Notes: generated by a model not told the origin, from the sequence alone. Positions 1-16,099 are shown, numbered from the stretch's first letter. The stretch: DNA of 64,000 nt from Escherichia coli (GCF_030013205.1 NZ_CP122648.1), one strand, 5' to 3'. Made by a program: numbers and translations.

Positions 1-271
1 AAAGATCTTCGGGTTGATAAGCGTGAAACCAGTAACCTTTTTCTTCTTCGGGAGTTTCTGGTCCGTCGGCGCGGAAAGTGGTTACGGGAGGGATTTGTAT
101 ATACCCATAATGACAACGTGCAAACTCAGATATATTTTTCCTGATTTGTTGATAGGTGGCATTAAAAGCATGAAGAATCGCTTCGCCAGGTTTTTTGGGG
201 GTGATGATTTCACATTGTGATTTCTGAACAGCAGTAAGAGATTTACGCTCAAGTGTTTGCCGTAGATGTTC
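1..271 (-). CDS. Partial ORF of unknown function; 5' part cut off by IS1, 3' end beyond window
   Basis: The minus-strand frame stays open for about 90 codons from the IS1 boundary to position 1 (...ITPKKPGEAILHAFNATYQQIRKNISEFARCHYGYIQIPPVTTFRADGPETPEEEKGYWFHAYQPEDL). It is absent from the ORF track because it has no stop in the window. No family recognised. Confidence 0.4.
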
Positions 272-328
272 TGGGTGATGCTGCCAACTTACTGATTTAG
301 TGTATGATGGTGTTTTTGAGGTGCTCCA

Positions 329-604
329 GTGGCTTCTGTTTCTATCAGCTGTCCCTCCTGTTCAGCTACTGACGGGGTGGTGCGTAACGGCAAAAGCACC
401 GCCGGACATCAGCGCTATCTCTGCTCTCACTGCCGTAAAACATGGCAACTACAGTTCACTTACGCCGCCTCTCAGCCCGGTACGCACCAGAAAATCATTG
501 ATATGGCCATGAATGGCGTCGGATGTCGCGCCAGTGCACGCATTATTGGCGTTGGCCTCAACACGATTTTCCGCCACTTAAAAAACTCAGGCCGCAGTCG
601 GTAA
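329..604 (+). CDS. insA: IS1 InsA
   Basis: 91-aa [46 protein letters not shown]..., which is the IS1 InsA zinc-finger/HTH protein. An A6C slippery run lies at 580-586 near its 3' end. Confidence 0.9.
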
Positions 605-1026
605 CCTCGCGCATACAACCGGGCAGTGATGTGATTGTCTGCGCTGAAATGGACGAACAGTGGGGCTACGTCGGTGCTAAATCACGTCAGCGCTGGCTGT
701 TTTACGCGTATGACAGGATGCGGAGGACGGTTGTGGCGCACGTCTTCGGTGAACGCACTCTGGCCACACTGGAGCGTCTTCTGAGCCTGCTGTCGGCCTT
801 TGAGGTCGTGGTATGGATGACGGATGGCTGGCCGCTGTATGAATCACGCCTGAAGGGAAAGCTGCACGTTATCAGCAAGCGTTATACTCAGCGCATTGAG
901 CGGCATAACCTGAATCTGAGACAACATCTGGCAAGGCTGGGACGGAAGTCACTGTCGTTCTCAAAATCGGTGGAGCTGCATGACAAGGTCATCGGGCATT
1001 ATCTGAACATAAAACACTATCAGTAA
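523..1026 (+). CDS. insB: IS1 InsB frame (expressed as InsAB' transposase by -1 frameshift)
   Basis: 167-aa ORF ending ...[19 protein letters not shown]. It matches IS1 InsB from memory and overlaps the insA 3' end in the -1 frame. Confidence 0.85.
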
Positions 1027-1036
1027 GTTGGAGTCA

Positions 1037-1648
1037 TTACCCAATTTTTGAACTGTCTTTAAGATGAATATTACGGATAAGAAAACGAATGTAGTTATCG
1101 TTTTTAGATTCCCAGTGCGTATATTTACCAACTATGCTATTATTTTCTGACTGCCAGTGATCGAATGCTGTCTGTCCACTTATATTTTTATGATTAATGT
1201 CGCAACCAGCCTCAATTAGTGCATCGTACACATATCCTTCAAATGGAATGAAAAGAAAGGAATTGCCATAGCTATCTTTGGTATGGATATCTAGTCCTGC
1301 TTTGATAAGATATTTTACTAACCCTGGTGAAACATCAATATGTTGAATCGCAAGGGTGCCTGACTTATTCCGGTGGTTAACATTAATACCATTGCTGACA
1401 AGAAGTTCCACTGTTTCAACATTTTGAGCATAGAATAATGCATTATTACCGTCATTATCCAAGTGGTGAATGTCAATGTCAGCGTCAATCATTGCCTGTA
1501 TAGCTTCAGGTACATTACAGGTAAAAAGAGCAGTTTGACCTTTACTATTGCACATATTTATATCCATGCCAGCCTTAAGGCAACGAAGGACACCATTTTT
1601 AGACTTTACACGGAATAGGTTATTTTTATTATTTTCTCTTGATATCAT
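1037..1648 (-). CDS. Ankyrin-repeat protein (203 aa); its stop codon is supplied by the IS1 end
   Basis: Tandem ~33-aa ANK-like units (KGQTALFTC..., DGNNALFYAQNVETVELLVSNGINVNHRNKSGTLAI..., YGNSFLF..EAGCDINHKNISGQTAF). RBS aaggag lies 7 nt upstream of the ATG at 1648. The gene is AT-rich. The ORF crosses the IS1 boundary (1041/1042) two codons before its stop. Confidence 0.8.
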   Translation of the reverse strand: MISRENNKNNLFRVKSKNGVLRCLKAGMDINMCNSKGQTALFTCNVPEAIQAMIDADIDIHHLDNDGNNALFYAQNVETVELLVSNGINVNHRNKSGTLAIQHIDVSPGLVKYLIKAGLDIHTKDSYGNSFLFIPFEGYVYDALIEAGCDINHKNISGQTAFDHWQSENNSIVGKYTHWESKNDNYIRFLIRNIHLKDSSKIG

Positions 1649-2112
1649 TGTTTATCTCCTTTTTTGTTGTTTTCAAGATATTAATGACACCAGATTTTAC
1701 GGTATTCAAATTTATTTTTGTTTTATTAGGGGGTATCTGATTTGGTTTGCTTAAGGTTATTCTTAACTTAATGGAACATAGGGACGTTAAGGTTATCCTA
1801 TGTGATGTGGATTAACCATTTTCACAAGAATATTTATCCATATTGGAACTAATCTGTATAAAGGAGATAATTAGAGGCTCAGATATTAATACTATAGAGA
1901 GTAATGCTATAGGATATGGAAAAGATCATGTAATATAATGGTGGTTATTAATGTTCATCTTAATTTTGGAAATTAAATGAGTAGTGTTTTTTATGAGGTT
2001 TTTTGCTGTTGATAATTCTTATTAAAATTTGAAGAGCATCCTTTAAGTTATTCGGCTTGAGGATGCTCATTTAAAATTTAAGCAGCGTAGTCTTTTTCAA
2101 CAGCCAGGAAGG

Positions 2113-2847
2113 GGTGATGCTGCCAACTTACTGATTTAGTGTATGATGGTGTTTTTGAGGTGCTCCAGTGGCTTCTGTTTATATCAGCTGTCCCTCCTGT
2201 TCAGCTACTGACGGGGTGGTGCGTAACGGTAAAAGTACTGCCGGACATCAGCGCTATCTCTGCTCTCACTGCCGTAAAACATGGCAACTGCAGTTCACTT
2301 ACACCGCTTCTCAACCCGGTACGCACCAGAAAATCATTGATATGGCCATGAATGGCGTTGGCCTCAACACGATTTTACGTCACTTAAAAAACTCAGGCCG
2401 CAGTCGGCAACCTCGCGCATACAGCCGGGCAGTGACATCATCGTCTGCGCGGAAATGGACGAACAGTGGGGCTACGTCGGGGCTAAATCGCGGCAGCGCT
2501 GGCTGTTTTACGCGTATGACAGGCTCTGGAAGACGGTTGTTGCGCACGTATTCGGTGAACGCACTATAGCGACGCTGGAGCGTCTTATGAGCCTGCTGTC
2601 ACCCTTTGACGTGGTGATATGGATGACGGATGGCTGGCCGCTGTATGAATCCCGCCTGAAGGGAAAGCTGCATGTAATCAGCAAGCGATATACGCAGCGA
2701 ATTGAGCGGCATAACCTGAATCTGAGGCAGCATCTGGCACGGCTGGGACGGAAGTCGCTGTCGTTCTCAAAATCGGTGGAGCTGCATGACAAAGTAATCG
2801 GGCATTATCTGAACATAAAACACTATCAATAAGTTGGGACCATTACC
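2113..2847 (+). mobile_element. IS1 copy 2 (735 bp, internally deleted; same orientation as copy 1)
   Basis: It has the same terminal repeats as copy 1. It lacks 33 bp relative to copy 1 (the [11 protein letters not shown] segment of InsA), between short ggcgt repeats. The flanking 9-mers (ccaggaagg vs aaatagttt) differ. Confidence 0.9.
2168..2832 (+). pseudogene. Defective IS1 transposase genes (insA with 11-codon deletion and lost stop; insB frame)
   Basis: The insA stop TAA of copy 1 (cagtcggTAAcc) reads CAA here (cagtcggCAAcc). InsA therefore reads through to a 133-aa product. The insB frame only opens from an internal Met (2455). Confidence 0.7.
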
Positions 2848-2877
2848 AAATAGTTTATATGCTAAAAATTTAGGGAA

Positions 2878-5800
2878 TCATTTTCCTAATTCTCCAGCTA
2901 AAAGTTCAGCCTGCTTCAAAACAGTCTCTGTGGCGAGCAATGACATATCAGGCGGATAACCATATTTTTTGAGCAGACGTTTTACCACCACGCGAATTTT
3001 TGCTCTTGCTGCTTCTTTCACTGTCCAGTCAAGACTGACATTGTTGCGGATAGCCTCCGTAAGTACGACTGCCAGTTCTCGTAGTTTTTCCTTTTCCATT
3101 AACTCGCGAGCACTGTCGTTATCTGCAACAGCAGAATAGAAGGCATATTCATAAGCGCTGAGGTTTAACTGGCTGGCAAGGCTGTCAGATTCCTGGATAG
3201 TCTTGGCAAGCTTGATTAGCTCATCAATTACCTCCGCTGCGGTCAGTACCTTGTTCTGGTAGCCATTGATTGCAGAGGTCAGCATATCAATCAGTTTTTT
3301 GCCTTGGGTGATACTTTGATTCGAGCGAACCTTGATCTCGTCAGAAAGCAGTTTTTTAAGCGTTTCCAAAGCAATATTTCTGTGTTGGTAATCCTTCATT
3401 TCCTGAAGGAATTCTTCAGAAAGAACGGAAATATCAGGTTTTTGTATCCCAGCAGCGTCAAAAATATCAACAACTTTATCGGTAACCAGAGCCTGATCGA
3501 TAGTCTGTTTTACCCGAACTTCGAGACTGTCATTGTGTTCTTCTTCTGATCCGTCTGAGTTTTCAGTAAATTTATTCAGTCTGGCTTTTACTGCCTGGAA
3601 GAATGCTACTTCGGGTGCCGCTTCCATTGCTTTATCGTGCGGTGTCGCCAATGCAAATGCCTGCGATAAGGCTGCAACCGCAGCGAGGAAACGCATTTTA
3701 CCTTTACCGTTATCCAGCCCTAAAATATGGTTTTCTGATTCAAGAATAATTGTCAGGCGTTGTGAGGTAGTTGCGGCAAAGTAAGCTTTGTAATCGTATC
3801 CATGCATCATGCCTTCCAGGATTTCCAGCTTTTCCTGCATGAGCGTTACGGCTTCTTCCTGAACCTCAGCAGGATCTCCACGTCCACCTGCATCAGAGTA
3901 AAAGGAGAGGGCTTCTTTTAAATCAGAGGCAATGCCCAGATAGTCAACAACCAGACCGCCTATCTTATCTTTATACACACGGTTCACACGGGCAATTGCC
4001 TGCATAAGGTTGTGGCCTTTCATTGGTTTGTCGATATACAGCGTATGCATGCTGGGAGCGTCGAAGCCGGTTAACCACATATCACGCACTATCACCAGTT
4101 TCAGCTTGTCGTCGTCATCCTTCATACGGTTAGCCAGAACCTGACGTTCTTTTTTTGTGGTGTGGTGTTTGGCAATTTCTGGCCCGTCAGCAGCAGAAGA
4201 GGTCATGACGACTTTTATTATACCGTCATTTAAATCATCGCTGTGCCATTCAGGTTTTAAGGCTATGATTTCTTTATATAGTTCAGCAGCAATACGGCGG
4301 GACATGGTAACAATCATGCCCTTACCATGATCGGCATTGGATTTTAAGCGCTGCTCAAAGTGCAGAACCATATCCGCCGCAATCGCTTTAATACGTTTTG
4401 AACTGCCAATCAAACCTTCGATTCTGGCCCATTTAGAACGTTCTTTTTGCGTGAGCGTCAGTTCGTCCTCGTTAAACTCATCATCAAAGTCTTCAATAAG
4501 CTGACGACCTTCATCACTGATGGCAATTTTGGCAAGACGGCTTTCATAAAAGATACGAACTGTTGCACCATCTTCAACGGCCTGCGAGATATCGTAGATA
4601 TCAACATAGTTACCAAAAACAGCAGGCGTGTTGACGTCCGTTTTTTCTATGGGGGTTCCGGTAAAGCCGAGATAGGTCGCATTAGGTAAGGCATCACGCA
4701 TATATTTGGCAAAGCCGTAAACGGTGCGTTTACCTGTTACGTTGCCTTCGCTGTCTTTCACGTCAACTTCTTTGGCGCTGAAACCGTACTGGGAACGGTG
4801 TGCTTCATCAGCGATAACGACAATATTGGTTCTGTCTGACAACAACTCATAGATATTGCTGCCATCATCAGGCTGGAATTTTTGAATAGTAGTAAACACC
4901 ACACCGCCAGAGGCGACACGCAAATATTCTTTGAGTTCTTCCCGGTTGTTGGCCTGTTTTGGTGTCTGACGAAGTAGCTGGGTCGCGGAAGAGAACGTAC
5001 CGAATAGCTGATCATCTAAGTCGTTACGGTCAGTAATCACAACAACTGTCGGATTATCCAGCGCCAGCACAATTTTCCCGGTATAAAACACCATCGAAAG
5101 CGATTTACCGGAACCCTGAGTATGCCAGACTACGCCCGCTTTGCGATCTCCGGTTTTTTGCGCATTAACAAGATCTTTACTGTTACGTCCCTGCTGGCGC
5201 AGTGCCACTTCGGCAGAGGGGGAGTCCGCATTCACCGCTGAGGCACGAATAGTGGAAAGAACTGCTGCATTGACCGCGTAGTACTGGTGATAAGCCGCCA
5301 TTTTTTAACAGTACGGATACTGATAATCCCTTTGCTGTCTTCATGTTTGCTGGCCTCAAACACGATAAAGTGGCGGATTATATCCAGCAGCGTTACAGGA
5401 TTAAGCAACCCCTGTAATAAAACTTCAAGCTGTGGTTGGGTACTGGTGGCTTGCGTTTTACCGTTAGCAGTTTTCCACGTCATATAACGACTGAAATCGG
5501 CAGAAACCGTCCCCGCTTTGGCTTCCAGCCCGTCAGATATCACATTAAAAGCATTGTAGTTAAACAGACCGGGGATTTGGTTCTGATAGGTTTTAATCTG
5601 ATTATAGGCACCTGTTACCGTTGCATTTTCGTCAGCGGCATTTTTAAGTTCGATAACGACTAATGGCAGGCCATTGATGAATAAAATAAGATCAGGTCGG
5701 CGGGTATGGTTGCCTTCTTTGATGGTGAGCTGATTAATGACCAGAAATGCATTATTAGTGGGATCGTTAAAGTCGATCAGGCTGGCCAGTTCTCCTTGTG

Positions 5801-6116
5801 TATTACCATCCTTGCTGACTTCGATATTGATTCCTTCGGTCAAAAGGCGATGAAAGGTTAGATTGTTTGCCATTAGGTCAGGTGAGCTGATCTGCATCAC
5901 CTGTTTTAGAGCTTCTTCACACTTCTGCTCACTAAGGTGCGGGTTAATTCGTTGCAATGCTGTACGCACTTTATCTTCAAGGATAACCTGCTGATAGCTA
6001 CGTAACGGATTGATTCCACTGGGTTCAATGTCCGGGCCGTAAACATACTCATAGCCCAGCCCTTGCAGGTGCTCAATTGCCATTACTTCAATATCGGATT
6101 CGGTCATCTTTGCCAT
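2878..6116 (-). pseudogene. hsdR: Type I restriction enzyme R subunit HsdR, split by a frameshift in a homopolymer (fragments 5232-6116 and 2878-5301)
   Basis: The N-terminal fragment carries the PD-(D/E)xK nuclease motif (RRPDLILFINGLPLVVIELK). The C-terminal fragment carries helicase motifs ([25 protein letters not shown]). The frames join at ...SIRTVKK|[11 protein letters not shown] across a run of six T (plus strand 5301-5306). One extra base would give about 1079 aa. Confidence 0.85.
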
Positions 6117-6174
6117 GCGTACTGTCCTTATTGCCGCTTAACCAGAGAGCGGGCTGTACACCCGCATAATTATT

Positions 6175-7368
6175 TTATGCTACTGATGCGATTGCTTCTT
6201 CCGCATACTGAACCCGTACTTCGCCGCTCATCAGTTTGGGAAGGAGAGTGTCGCGCAGAGATTCTATGTTTTTAATTTGTGAGTTGTTAATACTTATTTT
6301 TTTCCAGAAGAAATCAATCTGTGTAGTGAATTCTTTCACCATACACTCCGGGGGGAGTTTGAATTCTGGGCGTTGTAATCCGTCAGCCGACAGCTGATTT
6401 ACAGTTGAACCGTTAGTTGCAGCAACAACTTGCTCATGCATATCTTTGGAGCAAAGTAAATAGTACAGAAAAGCATTGGTTAAGTAACTATCGTCATTGA
6501 TGCTGATTTTAAATAAATGATGCGTATATATGGATAATTCGCTTTCTGTTTTTGGAATTATAGCAGGATACCCTATGAGTCGATATTCATGGCCCTGTTC
6601 TGTATTGGCTACAATGATATCCCCAGGCTTTATAATATGCCTTTCTTTAAAATCACCATTGTAGTATTTTATACCTGCACTCTTATAACCACCGCCCTCA
6701 AGTACTGAGTTCAAACTAAAAAGTGGAATGCCGTTATCTGACGTGGTAAGGCCGGCTCCCTTGTAGCTTAATCCCTTAGCTACTGTAATATGACAATCAA
6801 GAGTCGTTATTTCCCAATCCGCATGCGTCTCTTCAATAAACCACTGTCTAAATAGGGTTTCTGCCATGGATTCCAGAGTTTTATTCTGGCGATGAAGCAG
6901 GTCTATTTTGTCTTTAAGAGAGGACAAAATAGAGGCGATGGCTTTTTGTTCAGATTCATCAATTGGTAAGTAAAGAGGAATCAAATTTAGCGATGCTTTA
7001 TTTAATTTTGGTTGAGCAGCACCTGTTAAATAAGGAGATAGATCAAGTTGTGAAAAATATTGGATTATCAATGCCGTTAAATGGGGCTTTTTAGCTTTAA
7101 GGACATGAGCGTGATTATTAACCCAAAATTTTCCAGTAGCTTCAAATGCTATAGGTGTTTTTCTGGACTTTAAGTTTTCTCCATCTTCAGAAATAAGGAT
7201 GTAGCTGCCATCAAAAATATAATTGTCGATATAATCGACAATTCCTGACGCTCCATAATATGGAAAATTTCCTTTCTTATGGGCTCGTTCCATAGCACTC
7301 AAAGGAATTCTTTGTGCGTTGCAAAAATCTGCTAATTCAGTTATACAAAAATTTCTCCACCTACTCAT
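6175..7368 (-). CDS. hsdS: Type I R-M specificity subunit HsdS
   Basis: 397 aa with two variable target-recognition halves. These are separated and followed by conserved coiled-coil spacers (...[26 protein letters not shown]... and ...[19 protein letters not shown]). The ATGA overlap with the hsdM stop is typical of the operon. Confidence 0.85.
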
Positions 7369-8912
7369 AAAACCACCTTCGCCAGATTATCAACGATGGC
7401 TCTGTTCAGACGCGCCTCTTCTTCCAGTTGCGCTTCAAACTCAGCTTTAAGAGCCGTAAAGCGTTCTTTAAAGTCGAAATCGTCTTCTTCATCAGCAAGA
7501 CCAACATAACGGCCAGGTGTCAGCACATAATCGAGTTTAGCAACTTCAGCAATGTCTACTGACGCACAGAAACCAGCGACGTCTTCGTAGTCGCCACCTT
7601 TGTTACGCCAGTTATGATAGGTATCAGCGATGGTTTTTATATCGTCGTCAGAAAGTACTTTGGTACGACGATTAATTAAATGACCGAGATTACGGGCATC
7701 AATAAACAGAATTTCTTTACTACGATCACGATACTGGTTGCTGTTATGACGGTCACGGCGCATAAACCATAATGCAGCAGGGATCTGAGTATTCAGGAAC
7801 AGCTTTGCCGGTAAGTTGACGATACAGTCAATCACATTGGCATCTTTTACCAGTGCAGCACGAATATCACCTTCACCAGAGCTTTTAGAAGTTAATGCCC
7901 CTTTTGCCAGAACAACACCCGCTTGCCCTTTAGGAGACAAGTGATACAAAAAATGTTGCATCCATGCAAAGTTAGCGTTGCCAGCAGGTGGAATGCCATA
8001 TTGCCAGCGGGCATCACCACGAAGCTGCTCACCAGACCAGTCGGAAACGTTAAACGGTGGGTTAGCTATGATAAAATCAGATTTCAAATCTTTGTGAGCA
8101 TCGTTAAGAAATGAACCTTCATTATTCCAGCGAACGTGTTCAGAATTAATCCCACGAATTGCCAGGTTCATTTTTGCCAGACGCCAAGTGGTCTGGTTGG
8201 ACTCCTGCCCATAGATCGAAATATCGTCAATATTTCCCTGATGTGCTTCTACAAATTTTTCTGACTGAACGAACATACCACCAGAACCACAGCAGGGATC
8301 AAAGACACGGCCTTTATAGGGTTCCAGCATGTTAACCAGCAGGCTTACAATAGATTTTGGCGTATAGAACTGGCCGCCTTGTTTGCCTTCTGCCAGTGCA
8401 AATTCACCTAGGAAGTATTCGAATACGTGACCTAAAACGTCAGCAGAGCGTGCTTTGGCATCTCCTAGTGCAATGTTGCCAATCAGATCTATCAGCTCAC
8501 CCAGAACAGTGGCGTCGAGGTTTTGTCGGGCATAGACTTTCGGCAACACACCTTTTAACTGTGGATTGCCCGCTTCGATAAGCTCCATCGCATCATCAAC
8601 CATCTTACCGATTTCAGGAAGCTTGGCCTTAGAAATCAGATAGTTCCAACGTGCAAGCTCAGGGACAAAGAAAACGTTGTAAGCGGTGTACTCGTCTTTG
8701 TCTTCCGGATCAGCACCTGCGAACTCGCCTTTACCGGCTTTCAGCAACTCATAATGAGATTCAAAAGAATCAGAAATGTACTTAAGGAAAATGAGGCCTA
8801 GTACGACGTGCTTGTACTCGGCTGCATCAATGTTTTTACGCAGTTTGTCTGCCGCTTTCCACAGGATGACCTCTAACGGGTCTGTTTTGATTTCTTTAGG
8901 TTTTCTGGCCAT
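7365..8912 (-). CDS. hsdM: Type I R-M N6-adenine DNA methyltransferase HsdM
   Basis: 515 aa. It has the HsdM N-terminal region (LWKAADKLR...[16 protein letters not shown]), the SAM motif [10 protein letters not shown] and the catalytic NPPF. Confidence 0.93.
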
Positions 8913-9074
8913 TAGCGTAACCTTATGAAGGGGGAAGATGGCCCTATTTTGCCTTAAAGTTCCGCTTGTTACGAGCTTATACAGCGATTAATTATTATCT
9001 GGTTTTAGTGTGTTCGTGTAGCTCAGCAAGTGCAATGACTCATGGAGTAAATGCTTTGTAGCGGGATTGTAGAT

Positions 9075-9422
9075 GTCAGGTCATTGCCGTCAATGGAGCC
9101 AGTGTCATTGGCATAATTGCTGCACAGCCGATGCCACGCGCACATTCGCTAGTTCACTGTGGTTCATCGTGTGTACTACACCAGTACGCAGTCCGGGAAG
9201 TAACGGCATGGCAGAATCGTTTGTAAAGACGTTCAAGCGGGATTATGTGTACGTAGATGATCTGCTGGATGCAGTCTAAATGATGGAAACAATGGCAGAA
9301 TAGATAGAGGATTATAATAATCTGCATCCACACAAGGGGTTGAACATGAAATCGCCACGCGAATATCGTGATGCCATATTAGCAGTTAATTAGCCGTGTC
9401 CGTTTTAGCAGGGACAACTCCA
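9075..9422 (+). pseudogene. Remnant of an IS3-family (IS2-like) transposase 3' end with terminal repeat
   Basis: ...TRTFASSLWFIVCTTPVRSPGSNGMAESFVKTFKRDYV..., then after a stop/frame break ...EDYNNLHPHKGLNMKSPREYRDAIL. This parallels the IS2 OrfB C-terminus ([23 protein letters not shown]...HPHSALGYRSPREY). The element ends ...gggacaactcCA at 9422 (IS3-family TG...CA end). The 5' two-thirds of the IS is missing. Confidence 0.7.
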
Positions 9423-9733
9423 GTATTCAAAAAAGCTTTCTTAGTGCATATGCATGAGGTGAATAGATGTACAGGCTATGACAAACCATAGTTGTAATTT
9501 TTAATGTTTAAAATTCTCCGTTACAGTAGGACATTCCTTGTACATTAAATTCCATCTAAGGTTGAATTTTTAATTTAATAAGGTCGCAATCTAAAATGAT
9601 GTGTATGGGGTTATTTGTAAGATGATTTTTTATTTTTGATAGTGGTGATTAAGGGAGCGGGTAATGTTTGTCTATTCAAAAATATAGAGATTCAAGGTTG
9701 GTAGCAGTTTGGCTTCTTTTATAACCGAAGGGC

Positions 9734-9798
9734 AGAAAAGCAAGGGGAACTCGAAGAAGCAAGCGCAGCGGCTTCGCAGAGTTAGCCCTTGCTTCTCT
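9734..9798. repeat. Extended imperfect hairpin (about 65 nt) in an AT-rich spacer
   Basis: agaaaagcaaggg (9734-9746) pairs with cccttgcttctct (9786-9798) with one mismatch. Inner helices are aactc/gagtt and gaagc/gcttc. It is locally GC-richer than its surroundings. Confidence 0.6.
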
Positions 9799-9833
9799 TA
9801 TAATTGGCATTATTCATTCAAGAACAATAGGAT

Positions 9834-9853
9834 CTTCGCTTGTACAAGCGAAG
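9834..9853. repeat. Perfect 20-bp palindrome CTTCGCTTGT|ACAAGCGAAG
   Basis: Read directly from the sequence. It shares the gcttg/caagc core with the hairpin about 40 bp upstream. Confidence 0.85.
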
Positions 9854-10508
9854 CTATAATAAAAACAATCAATTAATAATTTTAAAAGTATTAAACAAGA
9901 ACCTATTGACATTCATAAAATACAAGTTATTTATAATGTATGCCATAAATAAAAAGTTTTATGTCATATGTATCCTGCACTATGTGCAGTTAATGTACCA
10001 CTTGTCCCATAGATGGGAATATTGGAAAGGTTACTTTGTTTTGAAGTAGCCTTTCGTCCTTCAATATTAACGATTACTTATTGCTATTACCAAGTCCAGT
10101 CGAATCGAAGAACATCTTTTATCTGAAACGACTCCTAATACCCGGTTAAAGCCACAATATCTCTCGCATACGTAGACCAAAGAAAAATTATGATATTAAC
10201 TATGTGATTTTTTTTAGTGTTAAGTTGAATAATTAAATACTGGAGAGTTTTCTGTGCACTACCAATTGCTGGTTCATCTGTTCTGCCGCTGATGTTTCTG
10301 ACGAATCTCCCGGTGACACAGAACTGTCCCTCTCTACCAGCCTTTATTCGACTCAATGTCCGGCTGCTGATACGCAGTTATCCCTTCGTATCAATGACTG
10401 ACACTTAAACGTAATGCTTTGGTTGCTGGCGTATCTGACAGCTTCTTCGGCGTGAAGGTCGTTGTGTAAGTATACTTCTTGGTTTATTTAGGCTATATAA
10501 AACCATGA

Positions 10509-11405
10509 CTATGACTTGCTGTTTTCAGTAAGAGTCTTATCATCCAAAGAATTTATTCTAGAAATTCTTTTTAACTCATTAAGATAATCAACCTCGTTTT
10601 CTAAGAACCAATGAAGAACTTTAGAATTGCCAAGTAATTTATTAATATATGACTGGATTATAACGAATTTCAACATATCTGAACCATACTCGGTTTGAAG
10701 CTTTTTCGTTTCTTCCGAAGTTGTTGCCATTTCTTGTTCCAGACGAAGTATGGTTTTTTTTATGTCCTTTTTATAGGGAGTGTTTTTCCCTTTATTTACT
10801 ATCATCGATGCCGGTGTTGCATCCAAGATGCTCATTGCAAATTTTTTACTATAATTATCAAAATTAATCATTGTACCGACTGCTTCAATTTGGCGAATTG
10901 GCTTCATTTTCCTCAAAACGTCAAATGTAGCCTTAGGTATAGGTTTATCAGAAAGTTTCGCAATTACACTTGGATCTATGCCGTTCATCACATTCGCTTT
11001 ATCTTTTATGGCATCAACAGATATGCCCAAAGCAGCACTAAGTTTTTCAATTGATACTTTTGCCAGAGACTTAATTATCATTCTATGTTCTTCAACTACA
11101 TTTATATGATTCACTTGTTTGTTAGGAGTGAAAGCATCATCTATGCTCGAAAGTATACATGGAGCTTTTTCTATACCTAAGTCTTTTAAAGCCTCAACCC
11201 TTAAATGGCCATCAAGTATCTTAGTGACATCTTTATCTTTGTCATAGAATACTATTATTGGTTCAATAATACCTAAGCTTTCGATAGAGGTAACTATTTG
11301 ATGATATTTATGGCTTCGCTTTACGTTTTCTAATAATTCCTTAGATGGAATTAACTTATTAGTTTCCAGGTAAATAAAATTATCGCCAAAACGTATCTGA
11401 ATCAT
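10509..11405 (-). CDS. ParB/Srx-fold protein B (298 aa)
   Basis: N-terminal ParB-like nuclease/NTPase-type motif ...KILDGHLRVEALKDLG.... The central region is HTH-like (SIEKLSAALGISVDAIKD) and the C-terminal half is helical. Its start overlaps the upstream stop (ATGA at 11402-11405). Confidence 0.7.
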   Translation of the reverse strand: MIQIRFGDNFIYLETNKLIPSKELLENVKRSHKYHQIVTSIESLGIIEPIIVFYDKDKDVTKILDGHLRVEALKDLGIEKAPCILSSIDDAFTPNKQVNHINVVEEHRMIIKSLAKVSIEKLSAALGISVDAIKDKANVMNGIDPSVIAKLSDKPIPKATFDVLRKMKPIRQIEAVGTMINFDNYSKKFAMSILDATPASMIVNKGKNTPYKKDIKKTILRLEQEMATTSEETKKLQTEYGSDMLKFVIIQSYINKLLGNSKVLHWFLENEVDYLNELKRISRINSLDDKTLTENSKS

Positions 11406-12298
11406 TTTAATACCTCTTTGTTTACTGGGGTTAATATCTGAGATGGTAGTTCTGAAAGATTCTCTTGTTCAAGTATATGTTGAAAGCTTTTATTTATCAT
11501 TATGATGTTAAAAATCTCATTTACTATTAGTAGGTTGGTTTTTATGAATTTTGAGTTGTTATAAACAGATTTATGTTCAGCGATACTATTTTCATAAAGC
11601 TCAATCAACTCCTCTGCAGTCATCCTTTTTGATGGTTTGTGATAATAAAATCCGGCTGCTTTTGCACCTTTATTCCCAACTGTTCTTTGATTTAGAATGT
11701 GTTTTATCTTTATAATGTCCCGACTTTTTATTAATTTTTTATCATATGCTTCGGTAAGAATATCTTGTGCTTCCTCAGTTTCACATCTTGCAAATTGCAC
11801 TGCGAGATACAGAGGCAAATTACCCCGTTCGACTGCTGAGAGAAGTTTATGCTCTCCCTTATCAAGTAGCATATTAATACTGCTCACCCAGTTCGATGAA
11901 TATCCAGTAATCTCACTTATTTCGGAGTCTGAAAGTCCTCTGATTTTCATGTCTTTAATCACCTGTAATAACTCATTAGAACGTGGTCTTCTCCTTGCAA
12001 TGTTTTCAACTAAACTCATAACGTAAGCATCTTCTTCTGATACATCTCTTATAATTGCTGGAATAATAGTTTCACCTAATGCAACGAGAGCCTCTATTCT
12101 CCCTTGACCACAAATTAAAGCATATTTGAAATCGCCTTCATCAATAGCTCTTACGCTTATTGGCTTGCTTAATCCTCTTTTTTTTATGCTTTCCTTTATT
12201 TCTTCATGCACTACCTTATTTCTTGTTCGTGGGTTAAGAAATTTTATTTTTGCAATCTCAATTTGAATTATTGGGAATTCATTTTTTTCAGGCAGCAT
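11402..12298 (-). CDS. ParB/Srx-fold protein A (298 aa)
   Basis: ParB N-terminal domain motifs ...YALICGQGRIEAL... and ...SLVENIARR.... An HTH follows (LSDSEISEITGYSSNWVSSI). It overlaps the recombinase 3' end by 11 nt. Confidence 0.75.
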   Translation of the reverse strand: MLPEKNEFPIIQIEIAKIKFLNPRTRNKVVHEEIKESIKKRGLSKPISVRAIDEGDFKYALICGQGRIEALVALGETIIPAIIRDVSEEDAYVMSLVENIARRRPRSNELLQVIKDMKIRGLSDSEISEITGYSSNWVSSINMLLDKGEHKLLSAVERGNLPLYLAVQFARCETEEAQDILTEAYDKKLIKSRDIIKIKHILNQRTVGNKGAKAAGFYYHKPSKRMTAEELIELYENSIAEHKSVYNNSKFIKTNLLIVNEIFNIIMINKSFQHILEQENLSELPSQILTPVNKEVLK

Positions 12299-13844
12299 AT
12301 AGTTCCCTCACTTTCATGCGAGTAATAATTTGTAGAAGTTTATCAAGATTATCAAATCTATAGAGATCTAATCGAATGTTGTTTGTTTCCGTCATGCACA
12401 TTTTATTATATTCGTTTTCAATCTTTGGTATGATATAAAAATCAAGAGGTGAAATATTTTGTGAATTCATTCGTATAACAATTGTTATGTCTGCTTTCTG
12501 TGAGTTATCAAACCGGACTTTCCATCTAAGTTTACCTGATTTCATATGTATGCATTTAGTAACAAGGACGGAAATTAAAAACTCATCATTGATGTAAAGC
12601 ATTGGGGCATATTTATACTCGTCTATATGACAGTTACTTTTTAAAATTTCACCCTTAAAATCCTCAATTATCTCTGAGTAAAATGATCTTAGTGCTTCAT
12701 TTATTTTGAGATAGCTGTAATCATGTTCTGGCTTATAACCAATCAAAGTATATGCTCTTAAAAGACCACCAAATCGGGTTCTATAAACAGAAGATGAAGG
12801 GCCTGTATCATCTTCATCAATGATAAAGCCTGATAGTTTTCCATTAGATTCTAATTTTTGTTTTAGTTTTTCTAATAGATCTTCATTAGTCAAATGAATG
12901 GATCGGAGCTGAATTATTTCTTGAGCTTTATTGTATTTTTTCTTTGAAATAATAGGTTTATATGCCTTGTCACATCTAACCCATTCATGTTTGGGGTTTT
13001 TTACAAGCCTACTTTTTAATTTAGATGAGGTTTTGTTATATATGTTGTTTCCAATATATTTTTCATTTGTCAAAATTTGATGTATTTTTGCACGAGTCCA
13101 TAATGTTCCATTTTCTGCAGGTATGTTCTGTTCATTTAATCTCTCAGCAATAATGAATTCTGGGACGTTATTATCTATAAAGAGATCATATATTCTATTT
13201 ACAATTTTTATTTCATTTTTTGGTCCCGGAATTAATATTACCCTATCTGTTTGAATACTCTTTCTTTTGCGGAAACTCAATATTTCTTTAGCTATGCCAT
13301 TTTCGTCTACTAAAAGACGTCTCAGCCCATAACCAGCCATACCGCCTTGATGATAACCAAGCTTTATTAAATTTACTTGCCCTATAAATACCTTTTCAGA
13401 TAGATTCCTGCTGTGATATGCAGCACTAGATCTTTTTATATTCAGTATAACAGAGGACTCTAAAGGGAAATCTTTAGTGGGTATAGGTTCGGAACAATAT
13501 ATAAGATCTACACCATTTCTCTCAAATAGAAAGGAATAATATGCCGCTTCATCACTATTTTGAAAACGACCAAAACGGCTCACATCATAAAATAATACAG
13601 CCTGTATATCTATTTTCTTTTGTTCTACATCGCTAAGTAACTGCTGCAAAGAATGCCTGCCTACGATACTGACTCCGCTCTTACCTGCATCATCGTAGGT
13701 ATAAGCGATTTCCATATTGTTCTTTTCAGCATAATCTTTGATATATTCGGACTGATTATGTAAAGAATATTGCTGATGGTCGGTAGACATCCTCAAGTAC
13801 TGCGCGACCCTAACTCTATGATTTTTGTCATTTTCGCTAGCCAT
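12288..13844 (-). CDS. Large serine recombinase (518 aa) lacking an obvious zinc ribbon
   Basis: Resolvase-type catalytic N-terminus (RVAQYLRMSTDHQ..., DVSRFGR). The 'recombinase' domain is present (LWTRAKIHQILTNEKYIGNNIYNK). The C-terminal ~200 aa contain only isolated Cys and no CxxC pairs. RBS gagg lies 8 nt upstream of the ATG. Confidence 0.85.
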   Translation of the reverse strand: MASENDKNHRVRVAQYLRMSTDHQQYSLHNQSEYIKDYAEKNNMEIAYTYDDAGKSGVSIVGRHSLQQLLSDVEQKKIDIQAVLFYDVSRFGRFQNSDEAAYYSFLFERNGVDLIYCSEPIPTKDFPLESSVILNIKRSSAAYHSRNLSEKVFIGQVNLIKLGYHQGGMAGYGLRRLLVDENGIAKEILSFRKRKSIQTDRVILIPGPKNEIKIVNRIYDLFIDNNVPEFIIAERLNEQNIPAENGTLWTRAKIHQILTNEKYIGNNIYNKTSSKLKSRLVKNPKHEWVRCDKAYKPIISKKKYNKAQEIIQLRSIHLTNEDLLEKLKQKLESNGKLSGFIIDEDDTGPSSSVYRTRFGGLLRAYTLIGYKPEHDYSYLKINEALRSFYSEIIEDFKGEILKSNCHIDEYKYAPMLYINDEFLISVLVTKCIHMKSGKLRWKVRFDNSQKADITIVIRMNSQNISPLDFYIIPKIENEYNKMCMTETNNIRLDLYRFDNLDKLLQIITRMKVRELYAA

Positions 13845-14014
13845 GCACGAAACCTCATGGATGATTCAATACAATGTAGTGGATAAAATTGATCAAATTT
13901 CAACCGAATTCAACTGTTTTATCATTGATTAGAGCGAATTTGGTAGATCTTCGAGGTGTATGATAATCGAGAAGAGATGTGAATTATTTAGCTGATATGA
14001 CCGACAGCTTTCGT

Positions 14015-14064
14015 TATGTGGACTCAATGTCCCCATTTGTAAATGGCTATGCTTAGTCCACATA
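14015..14064. repeat. 50-bp dyad-symmetric site upstream of the serine recombinase gene
   Basis: The outer 10-bp arms tatgtggact (14015-14024) and agtccacata (14055-14064) share one centre with the inner ccattt-gt-aaatgg (14033-14046). That centre is the gt dinucleotide at 14039-14040. Confidence 0.75.
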
Positions 14065-14126
14065 GGTTAATGGTGTGATTATTAATTCTTTAACTAAATC
14101 AAGATAGTTAATCCATCATGGGAGAG

Positions 14127-15356
14127 TTATGCGGCCATAACTTTGCATTTTTGAGACGAAACATAGTCACTCCACCATTGCATGAGAACCACCCGTTCAG
14201 TGAGATACTCTGCACGATTGTAGGCTGCAATTATTTCATCTTTCTTCGAGTGGGCAAGGGCGGCTTCTAAGACATCAGTCCTAAACTTGCCAGACTCCTC
14301 AGCAGCCGTTCTAGCAATGGATCGCATACCGTGAGCTACAAGCTCACCTCCGAAACCCATACGGATTATGGCCGCATTAGCTGTTTGTTCATGCATGTGA
14401 TTGAGTGGAGCTTTGATACTGGGGAACACCCACTCTCTATGCCCGCTGATGACTTTCATTAAATCCAAAACTCGCAAAGCTTCTTTGCTCAGTGGAACTT
14501 TGTGAGGCTTCTTCATTTTCATAAACTCCGCCGGGATGTTCCACATGCCAGTTTCAATATCAATATCTGACCATCTTGTGCGAACAGCTTCACCTGGGCG
14601 AACCCATGTGAGAAGTTGCCACTCAATCAGTAGCCTTGTTTCCAAACGGATAGAAGCATTGTTTAGAGCAACCAAGAAGCGAGGGAGTTCGGAAGGGGGT
14701 AATGCTGGCATATTCTGTTTTTTTGGCTTGCTGAACCGTTGCCCCAGGTTGTCTGCCGGGTTGAATTCTATGAGTTCTTCTGTTGCTGCATAGCGGAAAA
14801 TTTCATTCAGGCGGGATATGATGCGGCGAAGTGTTTCAAGGACACCTCGTTTTTCTATGGGTTCTAAATGCTGTTTAAGCATTTTAGGGCGAATCTCCTT
14901 AATTGGGGTATCACCCAATGTGGAAAAGATATTTCTCTCTAGGCTTCGCCAGATGTCGTTAGCATGATCTTGGGAGATGCCTGACGTTTTGACTTTCTCA
15001 TCAAGCCACTTCTTGGCTACTGCTTGAAATGTATGTTCCGTGGCATCTTTCAGTGCATTGGCTTTTTGGTTGTTATGAACTTGGGGGTCTATACCATTTG
15101 TAAGCAACGACAAGTATTCATCACGTAAAGCTCGTGCCTTCGCAAGTGTAAGGTGAGGATAGGTTCCTAAGCTCACCTTAGTTCGCTTTTTGGTCACAGG
15201 CACTGCATATCTGAAATACCAATTTTTCTTCCCTCCCTTCGCCAGGGGAGCGATTCGCAACAGCAAACCATCGCCGTCAAAAAGGTTAACCTCTTTTTCG
15301 GCAGGTTTGGTGCTTTTGATTTCAGTGTCAGTGAGCTTCTTAGCGATTTTGGCCAT
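14127..15356 (-). CDS. P4-type tyrosine integrase (ssrA-specific, CP4-57 IntA-like)
   Basis: The N-terminus MAKIAKKLTDTEIKSTKPAEKEVNLFDGDGLLLRI...WYFRY parallels K-12 IntA (MARKTKPLTDTEIKAAKP...). The C-terminal catalytic region has ...HGMRS...AALAH...Y. It lies directly next to the tmRNA 3' end. An upstream in-frame start at 15437 is less likely. Confidence 0.9.
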   Translation of the reverse strand: MAKIAKKLTDTEIKSTKPAEKEVNLFDGDGLLLRIAPLAKGGKKNWYFRYAVPVTKKRTKVSLGTYPHLTLAKARALRDEYLSLLTNGIDPQVHNNQKANALKDATEHTFQAVAKKWLDEKVKTSGISQDHANDIWRSLERNIFSTLGDTPIKEIRPKMLKQHLEPIEKRGVLETLRRIISRLNEIFRYAATEELIEFNPADNLGQRFSKPKKQNMPALPPSELPRFLVALNNASIRLETRLLIEWQLLTWVRPGEAVRTRWSDIDIETGMWNIPAEFMKMKKPHKVPLSKEALRVLDLMKVISGHREWVFPSIKAPLNHMHEQTANAAIIRMGFGGELVAHGMRSIARTAAEESGKFRTDVLEAALAHSKKDEIIAAYNRAEYLTERVVLMQWWSDYVSSQKCKVMAA

Positions 15357-15454
15357 GTTTGGGACCCTCGATTTTAGGACCCATCTTCGTGGGTCCCATT
15401 CAGGGTGCCATAACTCGTAGTTCTCAGCAATTCTCACTAGACTACAATAGACGT

Positions 15455-15488
15455 AAAAAAGCCCGCAGAGCTTGTGCTGTGCGGGCTT
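15455..15488 (-). terminator. Rho-independent terminator downstream of ssrA
   Basis: The minus strand reads aagcccgcacagcacaagctctgcgggcttttttac, a GC stem followed by a T-run. Confidence 0.7.
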
Positions 15489-15522
15489 AGTAGACTTTAC
15501 TGAACTTCAGTACATCAATATT

Positions 15523-15885
15523 TGGTGGAGCTGGCGGGAGTTGAACCCGCGTCCGAAATTCCTACGTCCTCGGTACTACATGCTTAGTCAGTCTTTACAT
15601 TCGCTTGCCAGCTGCGGACGGACACGCCACTAACAAACTAGCCTGATTAAGTTTTAACGCTTCAACCCCAGGCAGGGCTTCCACGCGATCTCTTTTGGGT
15701 TTGACCTCTCTTGATCCCCGTCCTAAGAGCGGAGGCTAGGGAGAGAGGGCTCTAAGCAGGTTATTAAGCTGCTAAAGCGTAGTTTTCGTCGTTTGCGACT
15801 ATTTTTTGCGGCTTTTTACGAGGCCAACCGCCCCTCGGCATGCACCTTGGGTTTCGCAAATCCCGTCGAATCCAGAATCAGCCCC
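15523..15885 (-). ncRNA. ssrA: tmRNA (SsrA), 363 nt
   Basis: The reverse complement begins GGGGCTGATTCTGGATTCGACGGGATTTGCG and ends ...GGTTCAACTCCCGCCAGCTCCACCA. It contains the tag reading frame GCAAACGACGAAAACTACGCTTTAGCAGCTTAA (ANDENYALAA). Confidence 0.97.
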
Positions 15886-16099
15886 AATGTGTAACGGCAA
15901 GTATACCAGATTTATGAGCGCCATGACCAGCCTCAATGGCGTTATCGTTAAAGATTTAGCACCCATGTAGCCTGATTTTTATTCGATTAAGCAATGGGAT
16001 GGCAACATTTGTGTCGGATGTGATAGCCAATAAGATGTTCATTCGCGCCGCCGGAGAGGGAGGCGCGGTGAGGAACTGGTCAATAATTGGAGTGCAGGT

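Follow-up and report, generated by a model that had tools for sequence, protein, structure and literature searches.

The large serine integrases of phages and transposons (SPbeta SprA/YokA, phiC31, Bxb1, TP901-1, TnpX) are major tools of genome engineering. Their site choice and directionality rest on a zinc ribbon and coiled coil, which read the outer motif of the att site and control the direction of recombination, and recombinases with the 'Recombinase' domain are typically integrases or transposases, not resolvases. Here we describe an operon in a 64,000-nucleotide stretch of an Escherichia coli chromosome around ssrA (NZ_CP122648.1; hereafter the window) that encodes a large serine recombinase (LSR) and two ParB-type proteins, ParB-A and ParB-B. 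Like the phage and transposon integrases, the LSR is borne by mobile elements, and it resembles them in its catalytic domain, long alpha-E helix and 'recombinase' domain. In contrast, one HNH_repeat-like unit and an alpha/beta domain replace the zinc ribbon and coiled coil, the enzyme is always co-encoded with two ParB paralogues, and it has no known att sites. Structures of the SPbeta integrase are available (PMC11722253).

Other described systems share single features with this trio. In SCCmec, too, serine recombinases (CcrA/CcrB) make up a module that sits at the edge of a chromosomal island, and CcrB is the best NCBIfam match of the LSR, if a weak one (63 bits against a cutoff of 900 bits). 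The CTP-dependent ParB clamps (Spo0J/ParB, Noc, KorB) share with ParB-A the N-domain, the helix-turn-helix (HTH) and the GxxR and ENxxR boxes. Unlike them, the trio has no ParA or KorA partner and no defined parS, its ParB proteins are tandem paralogues of which one appears degenerate, and the link to a recombinase is obligatory. The parCBA locus of RK2/RP4 combines a serine recombinase with two co-transcribed accessory proteins as the stability unit of a mobile replicon. The recombinase in that case is of the small resolvase type, and the protein named 'ParB' is a nuclease without relation to the ParB/Srx fold; the likeness to the trio is conceptual only. A module at an ssrA island in Dehalococcoides contains a CcrB-like recombinase and one ParBc protein among six genes (PMC3146451). 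Like the trio, this DsiB/DsiA module lies at ssrA and at the island edge and includes a ParB-domain protein; it differs in having a second small recombinase, a RecF-like protein, Mom and a single ParBc of 210 aa (PMC3146451). Unlike there, integration at ssrA is explained here by a P4-type tyrosine integrase. A 2025 survey of the ParB fold describes ParB-RepB fusions as common and does not mention a recombinase partner (10.1101/2025.10.10.680097). Small serine recombinases of the invertase type have been described as markers of defence loci in Bacillota and Bacteroidota, with no mention of ParB (PMC13552941). These loci, and hotspots adjoining P4-like integrases, resemble the trio in placing a recombinase gene beside highly variable defence cargo, whereas the trio is a three-gene operon with a large recombinase. 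In a survey of Paracoccus prophages, the largest cluster of serine 'integrases' had no identifiable att site (PMC6536676); it possibly belongs to the family of the LSR described here. We found no published description of an LSR with two ParB proteins, nor a profile library that covers this composition. This agrees with an initial reading made from the sequence alone (the sequence-only reading), which knew of no characterised system of the kind.

The recombinase and its two ParB partners

The three genes lie on the minus strand and encode the LSR (518 aa; 12288-13844), ParB-A (298 aa; 11402-12298) and ParB-B (298 aa; 10509-11405). The LSR and ParB-A genes overlap by 11 nt and those of ParB-A and ParB-B by 4 nt (ATGA), which suggests that their expression is coupled. 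The GC content of the trio is 0.328, compared with 0.461 in the adjoining P4-type integrase gene, 0.439 in the hsd genes of a nearby type I restriction-modification (R-M) operon and 0.505 in the core genes to the right. The sequence-only reading had pointed to these gene positions, overlaps and neighbours and to the AT-richness, and all of them were recovered in the sequence.

Pfam places a Resolvase domain at residues 14-152 of the LSR (7.7e-22) and a Recombinase domain (PF07508) at residues 210-312 (6e-22). The nucleophile Ser20 stands within YLRMSTDHQ, a D87/R90/R93 motif is present, and R18, S20, D87, R90 and R93 are invariant in alignments of 32 and of 50 homologues. Judged by this residue set, the LSR looks catalytically active. 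Sequence and fold searches returned the SPbeta, Bxb1, phiC31, TP901-1 and TnpX enzymes, for the catalytic and recombinase domains only. Foldseek matched the SPbeta, Bxb1 and phiC31 integrases over ~320 columns, profile matches in the PDB cover only positions 17-173 and 215-326, and the recombinase domain of the LSR aligns to residues 189-305 of SPbeta YokA.

Beyond residue 312 the LSR has no Pfam match, and residues 327-518 have no sequence match in the PDB. Its only cysteines are at positions 117, 291, 405, 431 and 483; none of them form a CxxC, CxxxxC or CxxH pair, and the alignment of 32 homologues contains no conserved Cys pair. The C-terminal domain (~320-518) is strongly conserved within the family (LSGxIIDE..PSSSxYxxRFGxLLRAYxLxGY), with W441, R458, D468, P473 and Y495 invariant, and an exhaustive search with this region alone recovered 1359 cluster representatives. 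An AlphaFold2 (AF2) model of moderate confidence (pLDDT 67) shows C-terminal helices followed by a beta-sheet domain. The first ~55 residues of the domain correspond to one divergent HNH_repeat-like unit related to PF18780, which Pfam calls 'homing endonuclease associated repeat'. The same unit is repeated in tandem, 3-7 times and at the same position, in sister recombinases (P0365, P0377, P0386, P0392, P0408) that combine Resolvase, Recombinase and PF18780 repeats without a zinc ribbon, an architecture for which we found no published account. Given these relatives and the lack of Cys pairs, the LSR was correctly called 'zinc-ribbon-less' in the sequence-only reading. It belongs to a broader branch of the large serine recombinases, so far undescribed, in which a helical repeat replaces the zinc ribbon.

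ParB-A matches ParB_N (PF02195, 1.5e-13) and RepB (8.7e-8) in Pfam and scores above the cutoff of TIGR00180. Its N-domain, with the motifs NPRxR, CG[QE]GRxE and VENxxR, is followed by an HTH and a helical, RepB-type C-terminus. In profile searches ParB-A matched Spo0J (1vz0, 1.8e-19, positions 22-204) as well as Noc and KorB; its GQGR aligns to GERR of box II and its VENIARR to VENLQRE of box III, and both are invariant in the family. ParB-A looks like a genuine, working ParB. ParB-B has a strong RepB match (2.2e-24), reaches Noc at 4e-9 in a profile search and scores 25.8 bits against ParB_N, just below the cutoff of 26.3 bits. Its divergent N-domain keeps GHLR (in DGHLR) and has lost the ENxxR of box III; a helical DNA-binding region follows, and then a RepB C-terminus stronger than that of ParB-A (AF2 model of moderate confidence, pLDDT 77). 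We infer that ParB-B is a degenerate paralogue paired with a working ParB-A. Apart from the sub-cutoff ParB_N match, Pfam bears out the domains that had been proposed for all three proteins. The likeness of both ParB proteins to RepB is limited to the C-terminal Pfam RepB domain: they score 35.5 and 12.1 bits against TIGR03454, the repABC RepB equivalog (cutoff 201.5 bits), and no repA or repC neighbours occur in the annotated neighbourhoods or in two inspected plasmid copies.

Conservation as a unit and genomic settings

When one genome of each species was scanned with a ParB-B profile, at least 506 relatives came up. Our species-level census comprised the best 80 of these loci, each from another species, and 71 of them had enough upstream DNA. 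The order LSR, ParB-A, ParB-B is intact in 65 of the 71 (tblastn), far more often than chance would allow, the other six being decayed by frameshift, insertion sequence (IS) insertion or truncation, and the LSR homologues align over their full length at 42-62% identity. The trio is also intact in 48 of 49 loci from IMG/VR. Of 8000 candidates scored in a profile search with the LSR, 6589 proteins reached E<=1e-30. Hosts are mostly Gamma-, Alpha- and Betaproteobacteria, together with a few metagenome-assembled genomes of other phyla and one low-GC (39%) gut contig, and 103 plasmid records from Alpha- and Betaproteobacteria match the module. In E. coli, the 3.8-kb trio segment was found in 659 of 5426 complete genomes (11-12%), always on the chromosome and as a single copy in 657 of the 659. 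The three genes are intact coding sequences at every E. coli locus inspected in RefSeq, and the trio is present and intact in BL21(DE3), an E. coli B strain. Thus, the three genes are conserved elsewhere as a unit, as the sequence-only reading had asked, and its description of the operon as an orphan does not hold in the sense of a rare one.

Partition genes are not regular companions of the trio. Only one of the 80 species loci has a ParA-like motif within 10 kb, Pfam-annotated neighbourhoods contain no ParA, and positions 1-16000 of the window contain no open reading frame (ORF) with a deviant Walker A motif (KGGxGK[ST]). The two plasmid copies inspected lie amid accessory, toxin and defence genes and not at rep or par loci. 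The sequence-only reading had noted no ParA or replication gene beside the trio, and these relatives bear out the lack of ParA, rep and partition neighbours.

Decayed copies are known from Dickeya and Sinorhizobium besides the six census loci. Multiple copies on Sinorhizobium megaplasmids were considered as a sign of transposition and rejected, being frameshifted ParB-B remnants beside IS66. A 7.5-kb 'Bacteriophage sp.' record, at first a possible free mini-element, lacks overlapping ends and matches a portion of a 50-kb contig at 97.5% identity.

The company of the trio is that of mobile elements. It directly follows a P4-type integrase in E. coli, Enterobacter, Kluyvera, Leclercia, Dickeya and Rahnella, and in five alphaproteobacterial species an integrase gene and a divergent HTH gene precede it. 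Some loci have MobA/TraD beside the trio, and at one locus it lies at the edge of an element with a VirB-type type IV secretion system (T4SS), adjoining ordinary genes. In many predicted proviruses of IMG/VR it lies 0-4 kb from the end and abuts tail-gene clusters. In several alphaproteobacterial genomes (loci L151:7485-14769 and L126:3209-9853) the cluster encodes a ~1300-aa tail/host-specificity protein, tail assembly proteins, an endolysin and a glycoside hydrolase, and it looks like the tail module of a gene transfer agent (GTA) or a siphovirus. The provirus borders in IMG/VR often fall inside or beside the trio. By annotation, the module sits in mobilizable or conjugative islands, next to prophages or GTAs, and in the accessory parts of plasmids.

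Within E. coli, the trio goes with a single integrase allele, which occurs at >=90% identity in 647 genomes compared with the 659 that have the trio, a near-perfect linkage. The segment from ssrA through window position 10461 is a single conserved block, and beyond it, the cargo on this backbone of integrase plus trio comes in at least three sets: the type I R-M operon (window and locus L001); in other strains, an integrase remnant followed by TIGR04141 and an Hxs system, plus a relaxase and more; and another relaxase-bearing set. Based on this comparison, the trio in E. coli looks like a backbone part of larger mobilizable islands and not like cargo, a point that the sequence-only reading had not noticed. 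At loci L002 and L003 (both 9529-14552) the second set encodes hxsDBCA (His-Xaa-Ser, radical-SAM) and the TIGR04141 'sporadically distributed' protein, on an island with a MOB relaxase; strain AST85 has a full island of the L003 type. The remnant in this cargo type is the 3' part of a P4-type integrase gene (~aa 335-436, 64-71% identity), on the same strand and 30-50 bp past ParB-B (L003:14712-15017; L002:14715-14996; L009:4337-4624; L116-L119 at ~10930-11250; a fragment at L018:10928-11254). Tandem island accretion, or else recombination of one integrase gene with another, may have left it behind as a relic. In BL21(DE3) and ET881, IS1-mediated deletions have left the integrase and trio alone, and the junction in MLI105, an integrase-only genome, is likewise an IS1 scar. 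These three genomes, considered as 'empty-site' comparisons, are therefore uninformative on natural boundaries.

Defence genes are frequent on the 3' side of ParB-B. Azaca (ZacABC) lies just downstream of the trio in 11 of the 80 species, and in five of ten further species a defence gene takes this place (short pAgo, a type I restriction endonuclease, HmaA, GmrSD, a UvrD/GajB-like helicase). Other loci have type III R-M, McrA-HNH, DndB, Dnd-like genes, a restriction endonuclease or AbiTii. To judge from these neighbours, the module brackets a slot 3' of ParB-B that holds unrelated cargo, mostly predicted defence systems. In PADLOC-DB 2.0 the LSR has no match, and for the ParB proteins the sole match is to a type II methyltransferase model, in its ParB N-domain part.

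The largest clade, the alphaproteobacterial one, has additional parts. Directly 3' of the ParB-B stop and on the operon strand, 45 of the 80 species loci have a structured element of ~140 nt (for example L027:10900-11040, L080:10906-11045 and L032:9377-9517), which is absent from the window. In an alignment of 24 sequences it forms six helices with 34 pairs, and 97.5% of cells are paired, a share that drops to 30-43% once the partner column is shifted. Doubly compensated cells number 52, compared with 14 in shuffles, and none of 500 shuffles reaches the observed value; 11 pairs show double compensatory changes, and the G-U pairs fit only the operon strand. Searches of six loci found no Rfam family at the gathering threshold and only chance-level matches at E<=10 on the element. 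A covariance model matches only the position 3' of ParB-B, strictly linked to the trio, and has no match in the window or in enteric or betaproteobacterial loci. Covariation thus makes this a well-supported candidate for a new structured RNA. A guide or bridge RNA was considered and rejected, the loops varying at only ~3 nt. Past the RNA come two more hairpins. The last is a terminator-like stem rich in GC, at whose 3' base interspecies homology stops exactly, +57 to +63 nt past the RNA in more than ten species. At the other end of the operon, many loci of this clade have a divergent HTH gene (~110-240 aa) ending 115-180 bp upstream of the LSR (L080:6751-7380, L086:6735-7361 and L004:7041-7424, all on the minus strand); in the 209-aa form of the product, a DeoR/WYL-like HTH lies at the C-terminus. 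The intergenic region contains a conserved motif (...CTTGCCCTTTTTCGGAAAC...TTCCG...), a promoter or operator, and the gene probably encodes the regulator of the operon. The window has no equivalent of it. The travelling unit in the clade with the RNA thus consists of regulator, promoter, three genes, RNA and terminator.

The window has its own conserved sequences around the operon. A 48-nt 3' tail (10461-10508, minus strand) includes a possible hairpin (TGGTTT...AAACCA) and a 10-bp palindrome, AAGTATACTT (10468-10477). Homology between the window and loci L002, L003 and L009 ends sharply at 10461, and the sequence beyond is unrelated. On the 5' side, a near-perfect 14-bp palindrome centred on GATC, AAATTGATCAAATT (13886-13899), lies ~45 nt upstream of the LSR ATG and is kept upstream of the LSR in the enteric loci L006, L013, L022 and L025. 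Its match quality alone is not rarer than chance, so the case for it rests on its conserved position; it is a candidate operator or ParB loading site. A 50-bp imperfect palindrome (14015-14064) with perfect outer 10-bp and inner 6-bp arms and a 2-nt centre occupies the interval between the integrase stop and the LSR, and could be the terminator of the integrase gene or a recombinase or ParB site.

Possible roles of the module

The reading that we tentatively prefer, and to which we give slightly less than an even chance, is that the trio is a self-contained mobile operon, the recombination and DNA-marking module of integrated mobile elements. We favour it because the LSR is an intact enzyme of integrase type, the trio is backbone in E. 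coli, integrases, relaxases and T4SS genes accompany it, often near element ends, and ParB clamps are DNA-marking devices. The DNA of the element itself would be the substrate on which the LSR performs site-specific strand exchange of the serine type, leading to integration and excision or to resolution of an excised, plasmid-like form. The LSR would read DNA through the helical homing-endonuclease-type repeat and the alpha/beta C-terminal domain rather than through a zinc ribbon and coiled coil. ParB-A, with its NTP-pocket motifs and HTH, would pair with ParB-B through the RepB-type C-terminal helices, and the pair would load at the palindrome in front of the operon. There it could supply the lost roles of the zinc ribbon and coiled coil (site choice, synapse architecture or directionality), and possibly also silence or tether the element. 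Two co-translated DNA-binding proteins are plausible substitutes for those parts. We infer all of these functional steps, including the ParB pairing, the loading site and the LSR substrate.

Several observations weigh against this reading. No recombination sites were identified, and the ends of the module lack inverted symmetry, with only scattered chance matches of 8-11 nt. Neither the boundary sequence of the 3' tail nor the palindrome AAATTGATCAAATT has a second copy in the window, including the far side of the cargo. No recurrent target gene was found in the flanks; clustering of ORFs from the loci gave antisense shadow ORFs at high GC, and only profile-confirmed clusters were used. In the clade with the RNA the sharp right end coincides with a terminator-like hairpin and so may be merely a functional boundary. 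A second integrase seems redundant at ssrA, where a tyrosine integrase adjoins, and the trio is absent from cultured GenBank phages. Both AF2 models are of moderate confidence, and the ParB pairing and any LSR-ParB contact are putative. Finally, a compact operon with its own regulator and terminator, many contexts and defence neighbours is the signature of a defence system too.

This last point leads to the main rival, which we regard as rather unlikely: the trio, with the HTH regulator and the RNA in the alphaproteobacterial clade, could be an unrecognised anti-phage or anti-plasmid system. ParB clamps would sense or load on invading DNA, and the LSR would act as effector, for instance by covalent double-strand cleavage without religation or by scrambling or trapping the invader. 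The operon is compact and portable, brings its own regulator, promoter motif and terminator and turns up in many unrelated settings, on plasmids as well as chromosomes; this would suit such a system, and so would the very frequent defence systems next to it, its AT-richness and its patchy occurrence in E. coli; serine recombinases have moreover been published as markers of defence loci (PMC13552941). However, the linkage to one integrase allele with changing cargo looks like backbone, PADLOC gives only the generic methyltransferase ParB N-domain, and an element module that lies beside a cargo hotspot would account equally well for the recurrent integrase, MOB and T4SS neighbours. Furthermore, we know of no defence system with a large serine recombinase as effector. 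The sequence-only reading had also suggested a system for defence or silencing, and for this suggestion the evidence points both ways: PADLOC has no model of it, yet defence systems are very often its neighbours. Co-occurrence with separate integrases, relaxases and T4SS genes also points to elements with a plasmid-like stage, for which the ParB pair could form a KorB-like clamp that silences or tethers the island or its excised circle, the LSR serving solely to resolve multimers of the replicating excised form, after the manner of a plasmid stability module but with no ParA of its own. ParB-A does match KorB and Noc as well as Spo0J, a RepB-type C-terminus is typical of plasmid partition proteins, and both the plasmid records and the palindrome in the promoter region would fit; we nevertheless consider this distinctly improbable, because ParA is so rare at these loci, the two plasmid copies lie outside rep and par loci, no res-like repeated sites were seen, and the nearest structures to the LSR are integrases, an enzyme group whose 'Recombinase' domain is typically not that of a resolvase.

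The shared right ends (10461 in E. coli, +57 to +63 nt past the RNA elsewhere), variable cargo and many contexts could also mean that the trio forms an autonomous mini-element, or a platform of integron type, with the LSR itself inserting the module or capturing cassettes 3' of ParB-B. Yet the right end is a terminator-like hairpin in the clade with the RNA and there is no inverted terminal symmetry; the distal side of the window's cargo has no partner site, and no pair among the inverted repeats of the window and L003 was convincing. E. coli genomes have the trio always together with the integrase and almost always as a single copy, the BL21, ET881 and MLI105 junctions are IS1 scars, and the Sinorhizobium copies are decayed remnants. 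We therefore hold this explanation to be very improbable, and the nested self-mobilising mini-element suggested by the sequence-only reading is not supported, on the same counts, the 7.5-kb contig being a fragment. Another of its suggestions, a plasmid-derived remnant, would explain the annotation 'plasmid partitioning protein RepB', the lack of ParA and the occurrence of decayed copies. Intact genes at 65 of 71 loci and dozens of invariant residues, including the catalytic set, across Gamma-, Alpha- and Betaproteobacteria make an inert remnant of a plasmid resolution or partition locus the least probable of these explanations, with hardly any chance of being right.

Across these alternatives, known families occur here in an unprecedented, strictly conserved combination, with a new C-terminal LSR architecture and, in one clade, a new structured RNA. 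A broader proposition, possible but in our view rather doubtful, is that the trio represents a new class of DNA-manipulating system, in which an LSR with a homing-endonuclease-type repeat needs a heteromeric ParB clamp (and in one clade also an RNA) to choose or license its substrate. It would then be either an accessory-directed integrase that moves defence cargo or a defence system with a recombinase effector. A very large natural LSR family without zinc ribbon, always with two ParB proteins, could show another way of controlling serine recombinases, and the trio places ParB-fold proteins without ParA outside chromosome segregation. The module also flags a slot of varied defence systems, which makes it a practical marker for new defence genes and possibly part of their movement. 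As the operon is intact in E. coli B/BL21(DE3) and present in ~11% of sequenced E. coli, routine genetics should suffice for testing these ideas.

The ssrA island around the trio

Upstream of the trio, the P4-type tyrosine integrase gene of the island (14127-15437, minus strand; ORF and RefSeq annotation) is followed by ssrA itself (15523-15885, minus strand; ARAGORN and Rfam RF00023, 292.8 bits), the tmRNA gene that serves as integration site. No ssrA-derived direct repeats of the kind that would point to tandem island accretion were found in positions 1-16000 of the window, and scanning the window for promoters and terminators brought out nothing above the shuffled expectation. At its far end, beside hsdR, the island has two IS1 copies (273-1040 and 2112-2880) that are repeats of 90-96% identity. 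This end has been eroded by IS1 activity, and the original attR is therefore not identifiable.

A very AT-rich stretch of ~1.1 kb (9300-10460; GC 0.32-0.39) lies between an IS3 remnant and the 3' tail of the trio and has no convincing ORF and no Rfam match; BL21 retains ~300 bp of the corresponding sequence. The IS3 remnant falls in the 1597 bp that separate the hsdM start (8912) from the ParB-B stop. The type I R-M operon, the cargo past the module (2878-8912, minus strand; ORFs and annotation of the identical locus L001), comprises hsdM (7365-8912), hsdS (6175-7368) and a frameshifted hsdR (2878-6116). Compared with the intact 1079-aa allele of strain K_EC180 (L001), a 1-nt deletion near 5301 splits hsdR into two ORFs, and the restriction subunit HsdR is probably inactive in the window strain. 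The hsdM and hsdS genes of the window look intact.

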